A stretch of 64,000 bases of DNA. It comes from Bacteroidales bacterium (GTDB lineage Bacteria > Bacteroidota > Bacteroidia > Bacteroidales > UBA932). Shown here in pieces: positions 8,000 through 62,534 of this stretch. Each line of letters begins with the position of its first letter. Position 1 is the first letter of the stretch. The notes under the pieces are model-generated. The model made no database searches, had not been told where the DNA came from, and worked only from the letters and a program-made list of their open reading frames with translations. The stretch is from positions 3,770-67,769 of the forward strand of contig JAFPWX010000023.1 in assembly GCA_017412645.1 (NCBI GenBank). The letters run 5' to 3'. Position numbers and translations under genes: made by a program.

Positions 8000-9183
8000 A
8001 CGTCCATAAGTATCCTTCTCCCCTTTGGGAGGAGATTGTTACAACGGCTCCCCAGGTTTTTGGCGAGCCCAAGAGGATGTCCGTGATATGCTACAATAAT
8101 CAGGCCTTGTGGAGTGCCTTCGGGCAGACGGAGAGCGTCGCGGTGGAGATAACGCAGAGCATCCTGAAGCGACAGCTCCACAACGGGATATTCGGGGCGA
8201 TATCCTATTGCGAGGACGCGGTCGAATTCTTCAATCTTCATTACGCCAGGCACTACAGAAAAAGCTGCACTCTTCAAGCCGGGAGCAGAGGTGCCGTTTG
8301 CGGAAGTTTTTTGCGTCAGGCCCCGTGCGGCCGCGGTAGCGGAGCAAACGGTAGCCTCTGGCCCGGCGTTCTGGTGCGCCGTTTTTCTCAGGGCCCCGAC
8401 CCACTGGCCTTCGCCTGGGACTTCACCCGCCTTGAGGAGATTGCCGTGGGCGGTCAGACGAACTCCGTACTGCGGGAATTCGTCTTCCGGGGCGAAGATT
8501 TCGCCTCCCAGGGTTTCAGCAGCCCATGCCAGATTGCCGTCGTTCTCCGCCTCTTCGTAGGTGCAGGTGGAGTAGACCAGGATGCCGCCTTCGCGAAGAG
8601 CTGGCCAGACATCGGCGAGGATCCTCCGCTGACGGGCCGCGCACATCTCCACCAGCTCCGGACTCCAGTCCGCCACGGCCTTGGGGTCTTTTCGGAACAT
8701 GCCTTCGCCGCTGCACGGAACGTCGGCCACGATTATGTCGAAGCAACTCGGCATCCGCTGCCCGAAAACGGCGGGGTCGGCGCTGGTAACCTGCACGTTC
8801 GGGTCACCCCATCGGGCAACGTTATCGCGAAGCACTCCGGCGCGGGCTTTCATCACCTCATTCGAAATCAGCTGGAACTTATCTCCGAGGGCTTCCCTGA
8901 GGCTCGCCGCCAGGTCGGTCGTCTTGCCTCCCGGGGCGGCGCAAAGGTCGAGCACCCTTACACCCGGGCCGAACTCACTTAAATGCTTGCGGAAGATGTG
9001 CCCCGGGTACATGGCGGAGCTGTCCTGGACATAGTAGCAGCCGGCGTGAAGAAGAGGGTCGAGGGTGAAGTTCGGACGCTCCTGCAGGATACGGCCGTAA
9101 GGGCTCCACGGAACGGGAGCGCCATCCGGGCCTTCACAGCCCTTGAAGGGATTCAGCCGTATTGCAGTACTTGGCGCTTCCAT
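7996..9183 (-). CDS. RsmB/RsmF/NOP2-family rRNA cytosine-C5 methyltransferase
   Basis: YYVQDSSAM, VLDLCAAPGGKT, DVPCSGEGMFRK, YSTCT motifs; C-terminal PUA-like region; contains a 30-aa low-complexity segment encoded by a palindrome. Confidence 0.9.
   Translation of the reverse strand: MEAPSTAIRLNPFKGCEGPDGAPVPWSPYGRILQERPNFTLDPLLHAGCYYVQDSSAMYPGHIFRKHLSEFGPGVRVLDLCAAPGGKTTDLAASLREALGDKFQLISNEVMKARAGVLRDNVARWGDPNVQVTSADPAVFGQRMPSCFDIIVADVPCSGEGMFRKDPKAVADWSPELVEMCAARQRRILADVWPALREGGILVYSTCTYEEAENDGNLAWAAETLGGEIFAPEDEFPQYGVRLTAHGNLLKAGEVPGEGQWVGALRKTAHQNAGPEATVCSATAAARGLTQKTSANGTSAPGLKSAAFSVVPGVMKIEEFDRVLAIGYRPEYPVVELSLQDALRYLHRDALRLPEGTPQGLIIVAYHGHPLGLAKNLGSRCNNLLPKGRRILMDV
8278..8367 (-). 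repeat. 90-bp intragenic imperfect palindrome, exactly 30 codons, in the RsmF-like gene
   Basis: Coding-strand arms GCCGGGCCAGAGGCTACCGTTTGC ... GCAAACGGCACCTCTGCTCCCGGC. Confidence 0.6.
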
Positions 9184-44564: not shown

Positions 44565-45518
44565 ATGCGCTACAAAATCACTCTTTCATACGACGGAGCC
44601 CCCTTCTGCGGCTGGCAGAGGCAGCCCGACGCGCCGAGCGTTCAGGAAGCTCTCGAAACCGCGCTGCAAACCCTTCTGGGAGAGCCTGTTCCGGTTACCG
44701 GCGCAGGCCGCACCGACACCGGTGTCAGTGCCGTGGATTATGTGGCGCATTTCGACGCTCGGCAGGAGCTCGACGCAGGTCATCTTGCCTGCAAATTAAA
44801 TGCCATCCTGCCCGTCTCGATAGCCGTTTCCAAGCTTGAGCCGGCCGCGCCGGACTTCCATGCCCGCTTCGACGCCCGCAAACGCACATACACTTACTTT
44901 CTGCACCGCTGCAAAGACCCGTTCCTGGCCACCCGTTCGTATTTTTACGGCTACCCGGAAGTGGATTTCGAAGCCATGAACAAGGCGGCCGCGATGCTTG
45001 TCGGCACCCACGATTTTTCCTGCTTCCAGAAGGTCGGATCGGACAACAAAACCACCACCTGCACCGTCTTCGAAGCTGGCTGGCAGCCTTACGCTCCGGC
45101 CGGAGGGACCCTTGCCTCCGACCCGGTTCGCGGATCCACCGCTCATCCCTCCCAGCCTGGCGGCGGGGCCCCTCGAAGCGAAGGAAACCGGGGTCCCCGA
45201 AAATCTGCTGATTTTTGGGGTGCTCACGAGGGTGGCACGCCTCTCGGAGGCAAGGTCCCTCCGGCCTCGCCGCAATATTGGTTCTTCCGGATTTCGGCCG
45301 ACCGCTTCCTGCGGAACATGGTTCGGGCCATAGTGGGAACGCTGTTGGAGGTAGGTCGCGGCCGCCGCAGCCTCGAGGAGTTCGCCGCGCTCATCCTCCC
45401 GCCGGCTCCTAATGCCTCCGGTGCCGGAATCGCCCCGAAAAACTCGCCGTCGCGCCGTTGTCTTGCAGGCGAGTCCGCCCCCGGCCACGCCCTCTTCCTC
45501 ACCGCCATAGAGTACTGA
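44565..45518 (+). CDS. truA: tRNA pseudouridine(38-40) synthase carrying a ~56-aa in-frame insertion
   Basis: YDGAPFCGWQ, GAGRTDTGV (catalytic Asp), FHARF, HDFSCF, ADRFLRNMVRAIVGTL, APGHALFL. Confidence 0.92.
   Translation: MRYKITLSYDGAPFCGWQRQPDAPSVQEALETALQTLLGEPVPVTGAGRTDTGVSAVDYVAHFDARQELDAGHLACKLNAILPVSIAVSKLEPAAPDFHARFDARKRTYTYFLHRCKDPFLATRSYFYGYPEVDFEAMNKAAAMLVGTHDFSCFQKVGSDNKTTTCTVFEAGWQPYAPAGGTLASDPVRGSTAHPSQPGGGAPRSEGNRGPRKSADFWGAHEGGTPLGGKVPPASPQYWFFRISADRFLRNMVRAIVGTLLEVGRGRRSLEEFAALILPPAPNASGAGIAPKNSPSRRCLAGESAPGHALFLTAIEY
45098..45266 (+). mobile_element. Palindromic MITE/RPE-like element inserted in frame in truA
   Basis: Arms GGCCGGAGGGACCCTTGCCTCCGA (45098-45121) and TCGGAGGCAAGGTCCCTCCGGCC (45244-45266) pair perfectly apart from one bulged base; inner hairpin CCCCGAAAATC-TGCT-GATTTTTGGGG (45195-45220). 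Confidence 0.8.
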
Positions 45519-45545
45519 CCTGTCGGCCTGTAGCCGGACAGGTGC
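45517..45545. repeat. 29-bp REP-like palindrome, copy 1
   Basis: GACCTGTCGGCCTGTAGCCGGACAGGTGC, identical to 62506-62534. Confidence 0.85.
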
Positions 45546-54648: not shown

Positions 54649-54669
54649 GCTCGTTTGATAGCGGATTCG

Positions 54670-55557
54670 ATGGCGGAGCTCCTCACATCGGCGCAGAACC
54701 CCAAATTCAAGCGCCTGGTCGCCCTGCGTGAAAAGTCGCGGTTACGCCGCGACGAGGGCGTGTTTGTGGTGGAGGGACGCCGCGAACTGGAGCACTGCGT
54801 GGAGGCGGGGTTCGAGGTGGAGACGGTGTTCGTGTGCCCGGAGATAGCCGACTCCGCTGCGGGGGCTACTCCCCCTTCGGGAGTTCGTCCTTCGGACTCA
54901 CCCCACCACCCCTCCGGGGCGGTCCCCCCGCTTCCGTGCCGCGGGTGTTACGTCCCTCAGGGGGAGTACCCCCGCAGCTTAGGGCCCAAAACCTTCGAAC
55001 TGAGCAAGGAATTGTATGCCAAGGTGGCTTACAGGGAGGGAACGGAAGGAGTGATGGCGATTGTTAAGAGCCGCGAGCTGCGGCTGGATGAGCTGCAGTT
55101 AGGCGACAAGCCGCTGGTAATGGTGCTGGAAGGAGTGGAGAAACCCGGCAACCTCGGGGCGGTTCTGAGGAGTGCCGACGCGGCCGGGGCAGACGCCGTG
55201 ATCGTCTGCGACCCGCTTACCGACCTCTGGAACCCCAATCTAATCCGCGCCAGCATCGGAGCGGTGTTCACCGTGCCCACCGTATGCTGCTCTTCGGCCG
55301 AGGCCATCGCGTGGCTGAAGGCACGCGGGATACGCATCCTCACCGCCCAGCTGCAGGATTCGTCCGTCTATTACGACGCCGACATGACAGGCCCCACCGC
55401 CATCGTGATGGGCACCGAAGCCACCGGTCTCACAGATCCCTGGCGCCAGGCCGCCGATGCCCACGTGCTTATACCGATGCTGGGCCGTCTGGACTCGCTG
55501 AACGTGAGCGTCTCCGCCGCCATTCTCCTGTATGAGGCAGTCCGGCAGAGGCAGTAG
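54670..55557 (+). CDS. TrmH/SpoU-family RNA 2'-O-methyltransferase with a 41-aa in-frame insertion
   Basis: EKPGNLGAVLRSA, VMGTEATGL, IPMLGRLDSLNVSVSA. Confidence 0.92.
   Translation: MAELLTSAQNPKFKRLVALREKSRLRRDEGVFVVEGRRELEHCVEAGFEVETVFVCPEIADSAAGATPPSGVRPSDSPHHPSGAVPPLPCRGCYVPQGEYPRSLGPKTFELSKELYAKVAYREGTEGVMAIVKSRELRLDELQLGDKPLVMVLEGVEKPGNLGAVLRSADAAGADAVIVCDPLTDLWNPNLIRASIGAVFTVPTVCCSSAEAIAWLKARGIRILTAQLQDSSVYYDADMTGPTAIVMGTEATGLTDPWRQAADAHVLIPMLGRLDSLNVSVSAAILLYEAVRQRQ
54856..54978 (+). mobile_element. Palindromic MITE/RPE-like element inserted in frame in the TrmH gene
   Basis: Arms GCTGCGGGGGCTACTCCCCCT (54856-76) and AGGGGGAGTACCCCCGCAGC (54959-78) pair perfectly apart from one bulge; 123 nt = 41 codons on codon boundaries; inner GTCC-TTCG-GAC hairpin. 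Confidence 0.8.
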
Positions 55558-62505: not shown

Positions 62506-62534
62506 GACCTGTCGGCCTGTAGCCGGACAGGTGC
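62506..62534. repeat. 29-bp REP-like palindrome, copy 2
   Basis: Identical to 45517-45545. Confidence 0.85.

Follow-up and report, generated by a model that had tools for sequence, protein, structure and literature searches.

The question raised by this locus is why the gene for tRNA pseudouridine38-40 synthase (truA), within a window of 64,000 nt (the whole stretch of Bacteroidales DNA that was analysed), contains a long palindrome which is read through in frame. A preliminary description, made from the letters of the window, had noted that 65 residues separate a strand ending in EAGW from the WFFRISADRFLRNMVR motif of TruA, and that a segment of 168 nt could be removed in frame. Both points hold when the ORF and its codon positions are followed: the translated ORF has 65 aa from EAGW to WFFRISADRFLRNMVR (residues 174-238), codon 179 starts at 45099, and excising 45099-45266 (168 nt, 56 codons) joins WQPYAP directly to SPQYWFF. 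The 23/24-bp inverted repeat said to bound the segment is also present, with arms of 24 and 23 nt and a one-base bulge, and the inner hairpin CCCCGAAAATC-TGCT-GATTTTTGGGG and the GAAGCGAAGG motif were located at 45195-45220 and 45175. What had gone unseen is that the insert belongs, as a single copy, to a family of dispersed repeats that share a conserved core with a pseudoknot, and that the truA copy is a composite in which the pseudoknot loop of the canonical element has been swapped for a second small hairpin repeat. The features referred to below are the following, R1 being a covariance model of the element core.

44565..45518, + strand: truA (tRNA pseudouridine38-40 synthase), the host gene, an intact 317-aa ORF with a PF01416 match
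45098..45266, + strand: whole palindromic element, 169 nt, 69% GC, encoding AGGTLASDPVRGSTAHPSQPGGGAPRSEGNRGPRKSADFWGAHEGGTPLGGKVPPA; the C-rich strand is the coding strand
45098..45121, + strand: left outer arm GGCCGGAGGGACCCTTGCCTCCGA, pairing with 45244-45266 save for a one-base bulge
45130..45142, + strand: small variable hairpin GCGGATCCACCGC upstream of the core, from the fold; other copies have different short hairpins here
45142..45174, + strand: core conserved across the family, CTCATCCCTCCCA-(hairpin a)-GGGGCCCCTC, which takes in the stem c 5' strand, from the R1 match and the covariation of hairpin a
45175..45227, + strand: nested 53-nt segment with the small hairpin repeat CCCCGAAAATC-TGCT-GATTTTTGGGG (45195-45220), from DNA alignment with the orthologous alleles P0002-P0004
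45228..45241, + strand: GAGGGTGGCACGCC, the 3' strand of stem c and the 3' strand of pseudoknot stem b, from the family structure
45244..45266, + strand: right outer arm TCGGAGGCAAGGTCCCTCCGGCC
54856..54978, + strand: a further superfamily copy within the window (123 nt, subfamily B), inserted in frame into a gene for a SpoU/TrmH methyltransferase (ORF 54649-55557)

For the host protein, the extra sequence is a matter of one loop. The E. coli TruA structures 1dj0/2nqp could be aligned to residues 5-168 and 238-278 of the window TruA, and the loop between them is 69 residues long, compared with 10 in the E. coli enzyme. As had been supposed earlier, orthologs are short at this site: the loop has 12-20 residues, in proteins of about 250-280 aa, in the nearest species representative (74% identical) and in Bacteroidales of other families. 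In an AlphaFold2 model with a mean pLDDT of 81, most 10-residue blocks of the fold exceed 90, while residues 181-228, between the strands 165-175 and 238-245, remain below 50 and form coil without secondary structure, which is the disordered loop that had been expected. The model places the insert as a predicted floppy loop at the tip of a beta-hairpin, a site which would be compatible with the host fold. Within the genus this loop is variable and often long, and the conserved RNA-binding helix motif FLRNMVR adjoins the insert-bearing beta-hairpin. Comparison of truA with the allele P0004 gave 45 synonymous and 8 non-synonymous single-change codons, and because synonymous changes far outnumber non-synonymous ones relative to related alleles, the gene is under purifying selection. 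TruA also stays intact in alleles with in-frame partial deletions, and in one with only the remnant arm of a related copy. The predicted coil, the selection and these intact alleles support the earlier suggestion that the insertion is tolerated in a surface loop.

It could be argued that the loop is not selfish DNA but an extension by which TruA has gained a function in this lineage, such as the binding of tRNA or of a partner, as it is frequently long in the genus and lies beside FLRNMVR. However, the same DNA occurs in mutL, WbqC/QueH, PAP2 and Peptidase_S13 genes, sister alleles hold unrelated hairpin repeats or deletions in this loop, and the peptide is predicted to be disordered. We therefore consider a functional extension very improbable; most likely, TruA gains no function from the insert. 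The peptides which it encodes include GGTLASDPVR and SADFWGAHEGGTPLGGK.

Another concern is that a repeat-induced chimera placed the palindrome in truA during assembly, as the genome is a metagenome-type assembly of 26 contigs, the element is repeated, and two short public contigs (P0007 and P0012) look chimeric at it. It is extremely unlikely that such an artefact accounts for the locus, as the exact 317-aa protein is found on 9 contigs (20-284 kb) of independently assembled public assemblies, with two of its placements coming from two different ENA samples and having the same neighbouring genes. In addition, the canonical element sits at identical junctions in orthologous alleles from other samples, and the frame of the truA gene is intact.

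A census of the 1.8-Mb source assembly with R1 gave 11 matches, which belong to three subfamilies and are all in frame within genes, 8 of them sense and 3 antisense. The hosts are TruA, SpoU/TrmH, MutL, PolA, ATP synthase gamma, WbqC/QueH, PAP2, DUF819, an M28 peptidase, a TPR-LuxR regulator and an outer-membrane-like protein, the last of these (a long ORF) being the only product of the eleven that is not Pfam-confirmed. An additional degenerate copy, detected by BLAST, lies in frame within a Peptidase_S13 gene. The census thereby rejects the idea that every host is an RNA-modification enzyme. In truA, the match spans 45141-45184 (26.9 bits, E 3.5e-5) and ends after the 5' strand of stem c; in the SpoU/TrmH gene (host PF00588) it spans 54896-54953 (27.6 bits), and sister copies of this subfamily-B element are found in atpG, polA and the M28 peptidase gene. 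In MutL, the copy separates the DNA_mis_repair domain from the MutL_C domain; in PolA, it separates the 5'-3' exonuclease domain from the 3'-5' exonuclease-like domain. Four of the six frames of the truA copy are stop-free, and all five subfamily-A copies are read in the one that gives a Gly/Pro/Ser/Ala-rich hydrophilic peptide. As judged from the reading frames, the open host frame in all copies argues for translation. With regard to an intein or a self-splicing intron, for which the frame of the insert would be free to decay, a search of Rfam with the truA copy gave no group I or II intron match. Excision of the insert from the RNA, for which a test had been suggested in the preliminary description, would be unlikely, because 11 of 11 genomic copies leave the host frame open.

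Beyond the source genome, 55 of 61 genomes of the genus have 1-49 R1 copies each, mostly intergenic, and 12 genomes from other families of the order have none. Copies are found in both orientations and in unrelated genes. That some are antisense and others intergenic argues against their deriving from the shared ancestry of a protein domain. A known RNA family was ruled out, as nothing was found in Rfam at permissive thresholds: the best match to the truA copy was tfoR (E = 0.17, 16.6 bits vs a gathering score of 70), and 20 related loci gave weak sub-threshold matches only (E 0.002 to 0.4, mostly to eukaryotic microRNA models). In the searchable papers, neither topic nor sequence-string searches turned up an account of this family.

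A canonical unit, such as the copy in the PAP2 gene at C6:6069-6169, measures about 100-130 nt and has an outer stem of 25-70 bp, the sequence of which depends on the subfamily, and in some cases a small variable hairpin. Its core consists of CTCAYCCCTCCCA-(hairpin a)-GGGCCCCTCCC, the last bases of which open a 5-bp stem c, and the loop of stem c pairs with the sequence just 3' of that stem to form the 4-6-bp stem b. From its pattern of substitutions, this fold appears to be a hairpin followed by a compact H-type pseudoknot. Among 86 distinct copies, 93% of cells are paired, vs 77% in shuffles and 38-48% with slid partners, and double-change cells number 223 vs 58 in the same test of the core fold. 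Hairpin a covaries across these copies, and stem b, which is outside the search model, is 96.6% paired, with 3 of its 4 pairs covarying. Among 37 low-GC loci picked by the 19-nt core motif alone, 30 have the exact pseudoknot. The outer arms (25-70 bp) are 92% Watson-Crick paired.

The truA copy departs from this plan. Its arms pair in two perfect blocks, 45098-45110 with 45254-45266 (13 nt, 100%) and 45110-45121 with 45244-45255 (12 nt, 100%), which are offset by the one-base bulge, and the fold energy of the element region is -104.9 kcal/mol, vs -83.6 +/- 4.9 for dinucleotide shuffles (z = -4.4). The nested 53-nt segment, of which the GAAGCGAAGG motif at 45175 is the start, stands where a canonical element has a pseudoknot loop of 14 nt and the 5' strand of stem b (CCTCTAACGATGCC), and the partner strand of stem b is mostly lost. 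The same nested segment is present in the copies in mutL (C8:57158-57297) and in the WbqC/QueH gene (C17:39656-39795), which are 94-97% identical to the truA copy over the inner 140 nt, with outer arms that differ from those of truA. Small hairpins related to the nested repeat occur in tandem in another genome (G006, locus L023). A shared inner segment between unlike arms suggests either that sequence was exchanged among the copies by gene conversion, or that the small repeat nested more than once at one and the same position. The truA, mutL and WbqC/QueH copies may be dead, because their pseudoknot is disrupted.

A further part of the answer comes from the alleles of truA itself. At the same junctions, near-relative orthologous alleles from other samples carry a canonical 129-nt element, and two in-frame deletion derivatives of the element are bounded by the short direct repeats GAGGG and CCCTC. 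Other subfamilies, one solo arm and a 29-nt REP-like hairpin all occupy the TruA loop in near relatives, and an allele that seemed to be empty (P0020) proved to have a solo arm of a subfamily-C copy. More speculatively, the hairpins of these elements may offer sites onto which additional repeats are inserted, and this would account for four or more different hairpin repeats having succeeded one another in a single TruA loop. The idea that the outer arms are inverted duplications of the target flank was ruled out for subfamily A, because near-identical arms, encoding AVEATAS, recur elsewhere, namely in PAP2, in WbqC/QueH and in a further allele of truA.

The element has diverged little, with differences at 4 of 129 sites (about 3%), vs 28 of 79 four-fold sites (35%) in the same gene pair (Fisher p 5e-10). 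Such slow divergence, about ten-fold with third codon positions included, suggests that the constraint is on the nucleotides and not on the peptide. Conservation of nucleotides would fit selection on a fold that mobility requires, but it could also mean a function for the host, and could equally stem from homogenisation by gene conversion or strain-to-strain recombination.

If there were a host function, the folded nucleic acid would serve the cell or the host gene, either as an mRNA structure (ribosome pausing, stability) or as an antisense small RNA, with the loop being a by-product. This would be in accord with the strong covariation of the core, with the roughly ten times slower divergence of the element relative to neighbouring four-fold sites, and with one position at which 39 of 86 copies have A opposite T or C, a combination that corresponds to G-U wobble on the G-rich strand only. 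Yet a general RNA-wobble signature is found neither in the stems, where other positions are balanced (8 G-T vs 7 A-C), nor in the outer arms, where 30 A-C and 16 G-T mismatches stand beside 81 others and transversions prevail, so that G-U wobble as a general cue to the folding strand was rejected. Moreover, the copies sit in unrelated host genes in both orientations and are mostly intergenic in relatives, Rfam has no match, the pseudoknot has been lost from the truA copy, and near-identical truA alleles have large in-frame deletions of the element. A service to the cell or host gene is accordingly improbable in our opinion. We also rejected an antisense-only tolerance, by which the G-rich strand would be a functional RNA unable to sit in an mRNA, as this strand is the sense strand in 3 of the 11 copies of the source genome. 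The excess of sense copies agrees with the C-rich strand having more frames that are free of stops.

The other possibility, concerted evolution by gene conversion or recombination, would apply to an element that has ceased to transpose in this genome, with the in-gene copies being trapped relics in a shrinking genome. The close match of the inner truA segment to the mutL and WbqC/QueH copies between unlike outer arms would be expected in this case, as would the contigs P0007 and P0012, in which the 5' half of truA is joined through the element to unrelated sequence, and the fact that no candidate enzyme was found. There are also only 11 copies, with none between genes, in a small genome (1.8 Mb, about 92% coding by rough ORF tiling); however, random insertion would place all 11 in genes with a chance of 0.92^11 ~ 0.40, which is not improbable, and copy numbers as high as 49 among sister genomes make recent activity likely in some part of the genus. 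We regard concerted evolution of an immobile element as conceivable but rather unlikely, and it would complement our main explanation, since reaching unrelated genes required past mobility.

Our favoured explanation, which we consider very probable, is that a selfish and non-autonomous repeat of palindromic form, akin to the palindromic elements of Rickettsia, has one of its copies in truA, where it is translated as a tolerated floppy loop. The folded core, as single-stranded DNA or as RNA, would be recognised by the enzyme that copies the element, and this recognition would explain the covariation of the fold across copies. The in-gene copies would be survivors that landed in permissive loops or linkers in a stop-free frame. 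Copies decay through in-frame deletions between short direct repeats. Four copies of subfamily A have both ends (truA, mutL, WbqC/QueH and PAP2), and none of them showed a detectable target-site duplication.

None of the candidates examined proved to be the mobilising enzyme, and a transposition event was not seen directly. A DUF559 nuclease was rejected as the mobiliser in this genus: the source genome has no such gene, elsewhere in the genus there are only weak partial matches within large ORFs, and the DUF559 cassettes of other Bacteroidales families have different hairpins and no R1 core. The source genome contains four Y1/HUH (RAYT-like) genes, of which three lie at a distance of 2-8 kb from a copy of the element. 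These were also rejected, as their flanking hairpins are unrelated and gene counts do not correlate with element copy number over 19 genomes of the genus (Spearman rho 0.22, p 0.37). A larger autonomous element was sought between paired cores in one genome (G056), where only ABC-permease genes and no transposase were found.

Some consequences are practical. The family explains many odd low-complexity loops in metagenome-derived proteins, as well as chimeric short contigs that break at the repeat. It also constitutes a clean natural experiment on where proteins can accommodate 40-56 additional residues, and a single TruA loop displays insertion, nesting, replacement and in-frame decay among near-identical alleles.

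Of the systems already described, bacterial MITEs within genes, such as ERIC, BOX elements and QMITE1 of Coxiella burnetii (PMC5896051, PMC10969869), are likewise small and non-autonomous, have terminal inverted repeats and occasionally fuse in frame with host ORFs. The family has the size and the terminal inverted repeats of a MITE, but no target-site duplication was seen and a parent insertion sequence sharing its ends was not found. It also differs in that the interior is conserved, whereas the arms are not conserved family-wide. REP elements with RAYT (Y1/HUH) transposases (PMC3733652) are repeats of 20-40 bp that have a GTAG or CGTC tag and flank the RAYT gene. Like the truA family, they are hairpin repeats that are presumably recognised in the form of folded single-stranded DNA, and they insert without a target duplication. 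The truA element is much longer, however (100-170 nt), and short tagged palindromes of this family do not flank a RAYT gene as in a REPtron; the Y1-like genes are bordered by other hairpins and their numbers do not track the element copies.

A closer likeness in sequence is found in Alphaproteobacteria, in small DUF559-nuclease cassettes bounded by inverted CCCTCCCA-hairpin-GGGCCCCTCCC repeats, of which the searchable literature gave no description. The Caulobacter CIR repeats, reportedly described by Chen and Shapiro in 2003, are perhaps related to them. The cassettes share about 27 nt of core with the truA family, namely CTCA-Y-CCCTCCCA, a variable hairpin, GGGCCCCTCCC-TCT and then a stem starting with CCCTC. 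In Alphaproteobacteria, however, the second stem is a plain hairpin (CCCTCTCCC/GGGAGAGGG) without a pseudoknot, and a cassette or MITE-like pair ends in two inverted cores, whereas in the genus studied here a single core lies inside a long palindrome and there is no stand-alone DUF559 gene. A speculative and rather doubtful extension of this likeness would be that a widespread but undescribed class of mobile DNA is recognised through the fold of this core (CTCAYCCCTCCCA-hairpin-GGGCCCCTCCC plus a CCCNN stem). A DUF559 cassette of about 420 bp with two inverted cores (Caulobacter, Sphingomonas, Rhodospirillales) would then be the autonomous form of the class, DUF559 would be a new mobilising or homing nuclease acting on folded hairpin ends (possibly triplex or pseudoknot), and the elements of the present genus would be orphan non-autonomous derivatives that colonised coding sequence. 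The slow divergence of the core, together with the part shared with the ends of DUF559 cassettes, makes the mechanism of mobilisation a concrete and testable question.

The system that most resembles the present one in kind is that of the Rickettsia palindromic elements (RPEs), which, in the account given by a review (PMC10969869) of Ogata et al. (2000 Science 290:347), are palindromic repeats lying in frame within genes. Like these, the members of the truA family are palindromes of about 100-170 bp that lie scattered over a small genome, fall into several sequence families and have no linked transposase. Many copies of both are in frame in unrelated housekeeping genes with open ORFs, at sites compatible with the host fold, and are read as an extra peptide. 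The truA family differs in phylum and habitat, its hosts being free-living gut and rumen Bacteroidales, and in having a covarying core of hairpin and pseudoknot that is common to its subfamilies, with freely varying outer arms, a second repeat nested within copies, and mostly intergenic copies in sister genomes. By analogy, we would file it as the same kind of element as the RPEs and not as a member of the sequence families RPE-1 to RPE-10, as homology is not expected across phyla and Rfam contains no RPE consensus. RPE-like behaviour is thus seen in uncultured gut and rumen Bacteroidales, where it reaches core genes such as polA, atpG, mutL and truA.

An intact truA gene in the window carries a palindromic element in frame, with a second, smaller hairpin inside it:

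44565–45518, truA: intact ORF of 317 aa with a match to PF01416
45098–45266, the element: palindromic insert of 169 nt within truA
45195–45220, inner hairpin of the element: CCCCGAAAATC-TGCT-GATTTTTGGGG

As position 45099 is the first base of codon 179, the 168 nt that follow the junction make up exactly 56 codons, and excising these in silico leaves WQPYAP joined to SPQYWFF. The intact frame, the codon 179 start and this clean junction bear out the preliminary description, which had reported a palindromic insert of about 168 bp adding 56 aa to TruA. Its inverted-repeat borders could be confirmed as arms that pair perfectly over a stretch of 13 nt and one of 12 nt, offset by a one-base bulge, and both the internal hairpin with its TGCT loop and the GAAGCGAAGG motif were found in the insert. 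The region has a folding energy of -104.9 kcal/mol, compared with -83.6 +/- 4.9 kcal/mol in dinucleotide shuffles (z = -4.4).

The expectation that TruA orthologues have only a short turn at this position also held. E. coli TruA (1dj0, 2nqp) aligns to residues 5–168 and 238–278 and has 10 residues where 69 are present here, and short connectors occur in TruA from the closest species representative (74% identical) and from other Bacteroidales families. AlphaFold2, run with an 84-sequence alignment, gave a confident TruA fold (mean pLDDT 81, 183 residues at 90 or above) in which residues 181–228, between the strands 165–175 and 238–245, have pLDDT below 50 and no secondary structure, the disordered loop that had been foreseen. 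In the first 176 codons, comparison with related alleles showed 12–45 synonymous but only 1–8 non-synonymous single-change codons, and because the former far exceed the latter, truA is under purifying selection. Together with the coil predicted at the beta-hairpin tip, this supports the earlier proposal that the insertion is tolerated in a surface loop. Nine contigs in public assemblies code for an identical 317-aa protein, and two of these places, from two ENA samples, have the same neighbouring genes; misassembly is unlikely, and the insert appears to be tolerated. We consider it very probable that it is a selfish palindromic repeat resembling the Rickettsia palindromic elements (RPE), translated as a floppy loop at the beta-hairpin tip of a TruA still under selection, and that it is a composite copy with a disrupted pseudoknot.

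The inner 140 nt of the truA copy recur at 94–97% identity on two other contigs of the same 1.8-Mb genome, with shorter or degenerate copies elsewhere. A search of this genome with R1, a covariance model of the core of the element family, retrieved 11 copies, every one in frame within a long ORF (host genes identified by Pfam):

C-rich strand sense (8): TruA, SpoU/TrmH (window 54856–54978), MutL, DNA polymerase I, ATP synthase gamma, WbqC/QueH fusion, PAP2 phosphatase, DUF819 membrane protein
G-rich strand sense (3): TPR-LuxR regulator, M28 peptidase, outer-membrane-like protein without Pfam match

A degenerate copy, missed by R1, lies in frame in a Peptidase_S13 gene. This range of hosts speaks against the reading that all of them are RNA-modification enzymes. 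Since 92% of the genome is coding according to a rough ORF tiling, the location of all 11 copies within genes is not improbable under random insertion (0.92^11 ~0.40); the notable point is that all 11 intragenic copies are tolerated. Three subfamilies are present, and the five copies of subfamily A, which includes that in truA, are all read in one frame, giving ...ASDPVRGxAAHPSQPGGWAP.... The truA copy is stop-free in four of six frames (1.9 on average in shuffles), and the chance of five out of five in one frame is ~0.004, assuming that open frames are equally likely. We take this shared frame to mean that selection favours the frame whose peptide is most hydrophilic and rich in Gly/Pro/Ser/Ala.

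Some host genes have further peculiarities. WbqC-like and QueH (epoxyqueuosine reductase) domains share one open frame of 429 aa (C17:39246–40532), with the element in the WbqC part. The ATP synthase gamma subunit gene atpG on contig C11 carries a subfamily-B element, and additional long low-complexity stretches (e.g. residues ~60–105 and AASLPPAASLPGNAP) split its Pfam match in two. A 90-nt palindrome in an RsmF/NOP2-like gene (window 8278–8367, minus strand) has an open frame and no R1 match, and is either a very degenerate copy or a different element.

The nearest public relatives are Bacteroidales MAGs from rumen, horse, deer and chicken gut, and Candidatus Cryptobacteroides. Of 61 genomes in the genus, 55 have R1 matches (1 to 49 copies per genome), and the 12 genomes searched from other families of the order have none. 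Among 51 sampled copies from relatives, about 11 lie within genes (7 clearly sense, 1 antisense, the rest ambiguous), the other ~40 being intergenic or at gene ends.

The outer arms of the family are 25–70 bp long and 92% paired, and their sequence varies freely between subfamilies; the interior, CTCAYCCCTCCCA-[hairpin a]-GGGCCCCTCCC, is kept across them. In stem c, the last CCC of the core and two variable bases pair with NNGGG downstream, and in stem b the bases just 3' of stem c pair back with the end of its loop, so that stems b and c are predicted to form a compact H-type pseudoknot. Covariation was analysed in 86 distinct copies, gathered with a model that did not contain stem b. Over the whole structure, 93.2% of cells are paired, compared with 76.6% in shuffles and 38–48% with slid partners, and 223 cells are changed on both sides (58 in shuffles). 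For stem b, which was outside the search model, 96.6% of cells are paired and three of four pairs covary. A hand-made alignment gave the same covariation picture, and in a sample defined by a 19-nt motif alone an exact pseudoknot is formed by 30 of 37 low-GC loci. An Rfam search with the element gave no match. One conserved A stands opposite T or C, a pairing that on the G-rich strand would correspond to a G-U wobble. At other stem positions G-T mismatches are about as common as A-C mismatches, and most mismatches in the arms are transversions; either strand may be the one that folds, as RNA or as single-stranded DNA. In one family copy, from a Bacteroidales MAG of sheep caecum (L210), the outer arms are perfectly complementary over 70 bp. 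Such a length is far beyond what a hairpin needs and is not easily accounted for by ordinary decay, and it points to active homogenisation or extension of the arms.

The loop was compared among alleles whose proteins are 70–93% identical to the window TruA, nine of them also as DNA.

States of the TruA loop among related alleles
P0002, P0003, P0004: canonical 129-nt element, junctions and arms as in the window truA
Window truA: changed only in that 14 nt, CCTCTAACGATGCC (pseudoknot loop and 5' strand of stem b), are swapped for the 53 nt at 45175–45227
P0010, P0006: in-frame deletions between short direct repeats (GAGGG and CCCTC)
P0013: same core, other arms
P0019, P0023: subfamily-C copy that contains a nested piece
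P0020: one arm alone of the P0019/P0023-type copy
P0005, P0009, P0011, P0015: another insert at this place
TruA of genome G010: yet another subfamily, in a different frame

The range of these states makes the TruA loop a hot spot where repeats insert, nest, are replaced and decay, and a hairpin already in place may attract further ones. Within the 53-nt segment lies a small hairpin repeat distinct from the element, and genome G006 has related repeats in tandem. The copies in mutL and WbqC/QueH have the same inner segment as the truA copy despite different outer arms, which points to sequence exchange among copies or to more than one nesting event at the same spot. In P0009, the only allele of its group compared as DNA, the insert is a 29-nt REP-like hairpin encoding GTCRPTAGQV in frame, a motif that protein alignment also places in P0005, P0011 and P0015. 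The same hairpin, the REP-like palindrome CCTGTCGGCCTGTAGCCGGACAGG (24–29 nt), overlaps the truA stop codon at window 45517–45545 and is one of 7 in the genome, the others being at window 62506–62534 and at C2:312, C10:22162, C10:38296, C10:38372 and C25:20732. TruA has a second variable segment with low pLDDT at residues 278–296 (window 45396–45452), where related alleles either are longer by about 25 residues (ILPP...IAPKN.PSRR) or have a short EGGSRTQS. The left half of the small nested hairpin is nearly repeated in this segment, as CCCCGAAAAACT, and the segment may be a remnant of another insertion. On the contigs of P0007 and P0012 (2.4 and 2.9 kb), the 5' half of truA is followed by an element with mutL/PAP2-type arms and then by unrelated sequence, reflecting either repeat-induced chimeric assembly or real rearrangement at the repeat.

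Alleles P0003 and P0004 differ at 28 of the 79 four-fold degenerate sites in truA and at 4 positions of the 129-nt element (Fisher p 5e-10); for the window copy and P0004 the figures are 30/83 and 5/129. Conservation at third codon positions equals that at the other two, so it is not the peptide that is constrained. The conservation may reflect selection on the fold or, equally well, homogenisation by gene conversion or between-strain recombination.

No target-site duplication is visible at the junctions of the four subfamily-A copies that have both ends. The core motif is also abundant in Alphaproteobacteria (e.g. Caulobacter, Sphingomonas, Rhodospirillales), there followed by a plain CCCTCTCCC/GGGAGAGGG hairpin, and at 13 such loci a DUF559 gene is present, directly abutting a core in at least 10. 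Five of these have the gene between two inverted cores, forming a cassette of ~420 bp. DUF559 genes between two inverted cores lie at the following loci:

L189, 1413–1903: DUF559 gene
L217, 4259–4680: DUF559 gene
L248, L251, L268: DUF559 genes

A few bases at most separate these genes (110–150 aa) from a copy of CCCTCACCCTCCCA-hairpin-GGGCCCCTCCCTCTCCC-loop-GGGAGAGGG on either side, the two copies being inverted, and the same inverted pairs occur without a gene at L149 and L162. The arrangement resembles a mobile cassette, apparently undescribed, that has MITE-like derivatives. No description of DUF559 cassettes with these ends was found in the literature searched; the alphaproteobacterial repeat may be the one treated in the Caulobacter CIR paper. 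In other Bacteroidales families, DUF559 genes have hairpins of a similar flavour at their flanks and carry no R1 core. DUF559 was rejected as mobiliser in this genus, as the element's own genome has no such gene and the rest of the genus gave weak partial matches within large ORFs alone. A cross-phylum class of mobile elements built on this core fold, with DUF559 as its nuclease, appears unlikely.

The genome also encodes four Y1/HUH (IS200-like, RAYT-like) proteins of ~290–340 aa:

C6:3231–4169, Y1/HUH gene
C17:46496–47512, Y1/HUH gene
C8:63044–64201, Y1/HUH gene
C17:70391–71383, Y1/HUH gene

Three of the four lie 2–8 kb from an element copy. Each is flanked by its own hairpins (e.g. GGAGACGTCCCATTTTTCGGGACGTCTCC and GTACGAGCAAAAAAGGCTCATTTTGCTCGTAC), and these enzymes were rejected as mobiliser because the flanking hairpins are unrelated to the element and because Y1/HUH counts show no correlation with copy number in 19 genomes of the genus (rho 0.22, p 0.37). 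In genome G056, two cores separated by 2.6 kb were dismissed as the ends of a larger element, since only ABC-permease genes lie between them. The mobilising enzyme was not found among the DUF559, Y1/HUH and G056 paired-core candidates.

In the literature searched, no account of elements of this kind from Bacteroidales was found. The element differs from MITEs on two counts, target duplication and a parent insertion sequence, and does not qualify as part of a REP/RAYT system. RPE comprise ten families of ~150-bp repeats, of which nearly half lie in frame within unrelated genes (PMC10969869, review). These are the closest known kind: the element family works like RPE and is probably no member by sequence. 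It differs from RPE in its pseudoknotted, covarying core common to the subfamilies, its freely varying arms, the nesting of a second repeat, and the mostly intergenic position of its copies in sister genomes.
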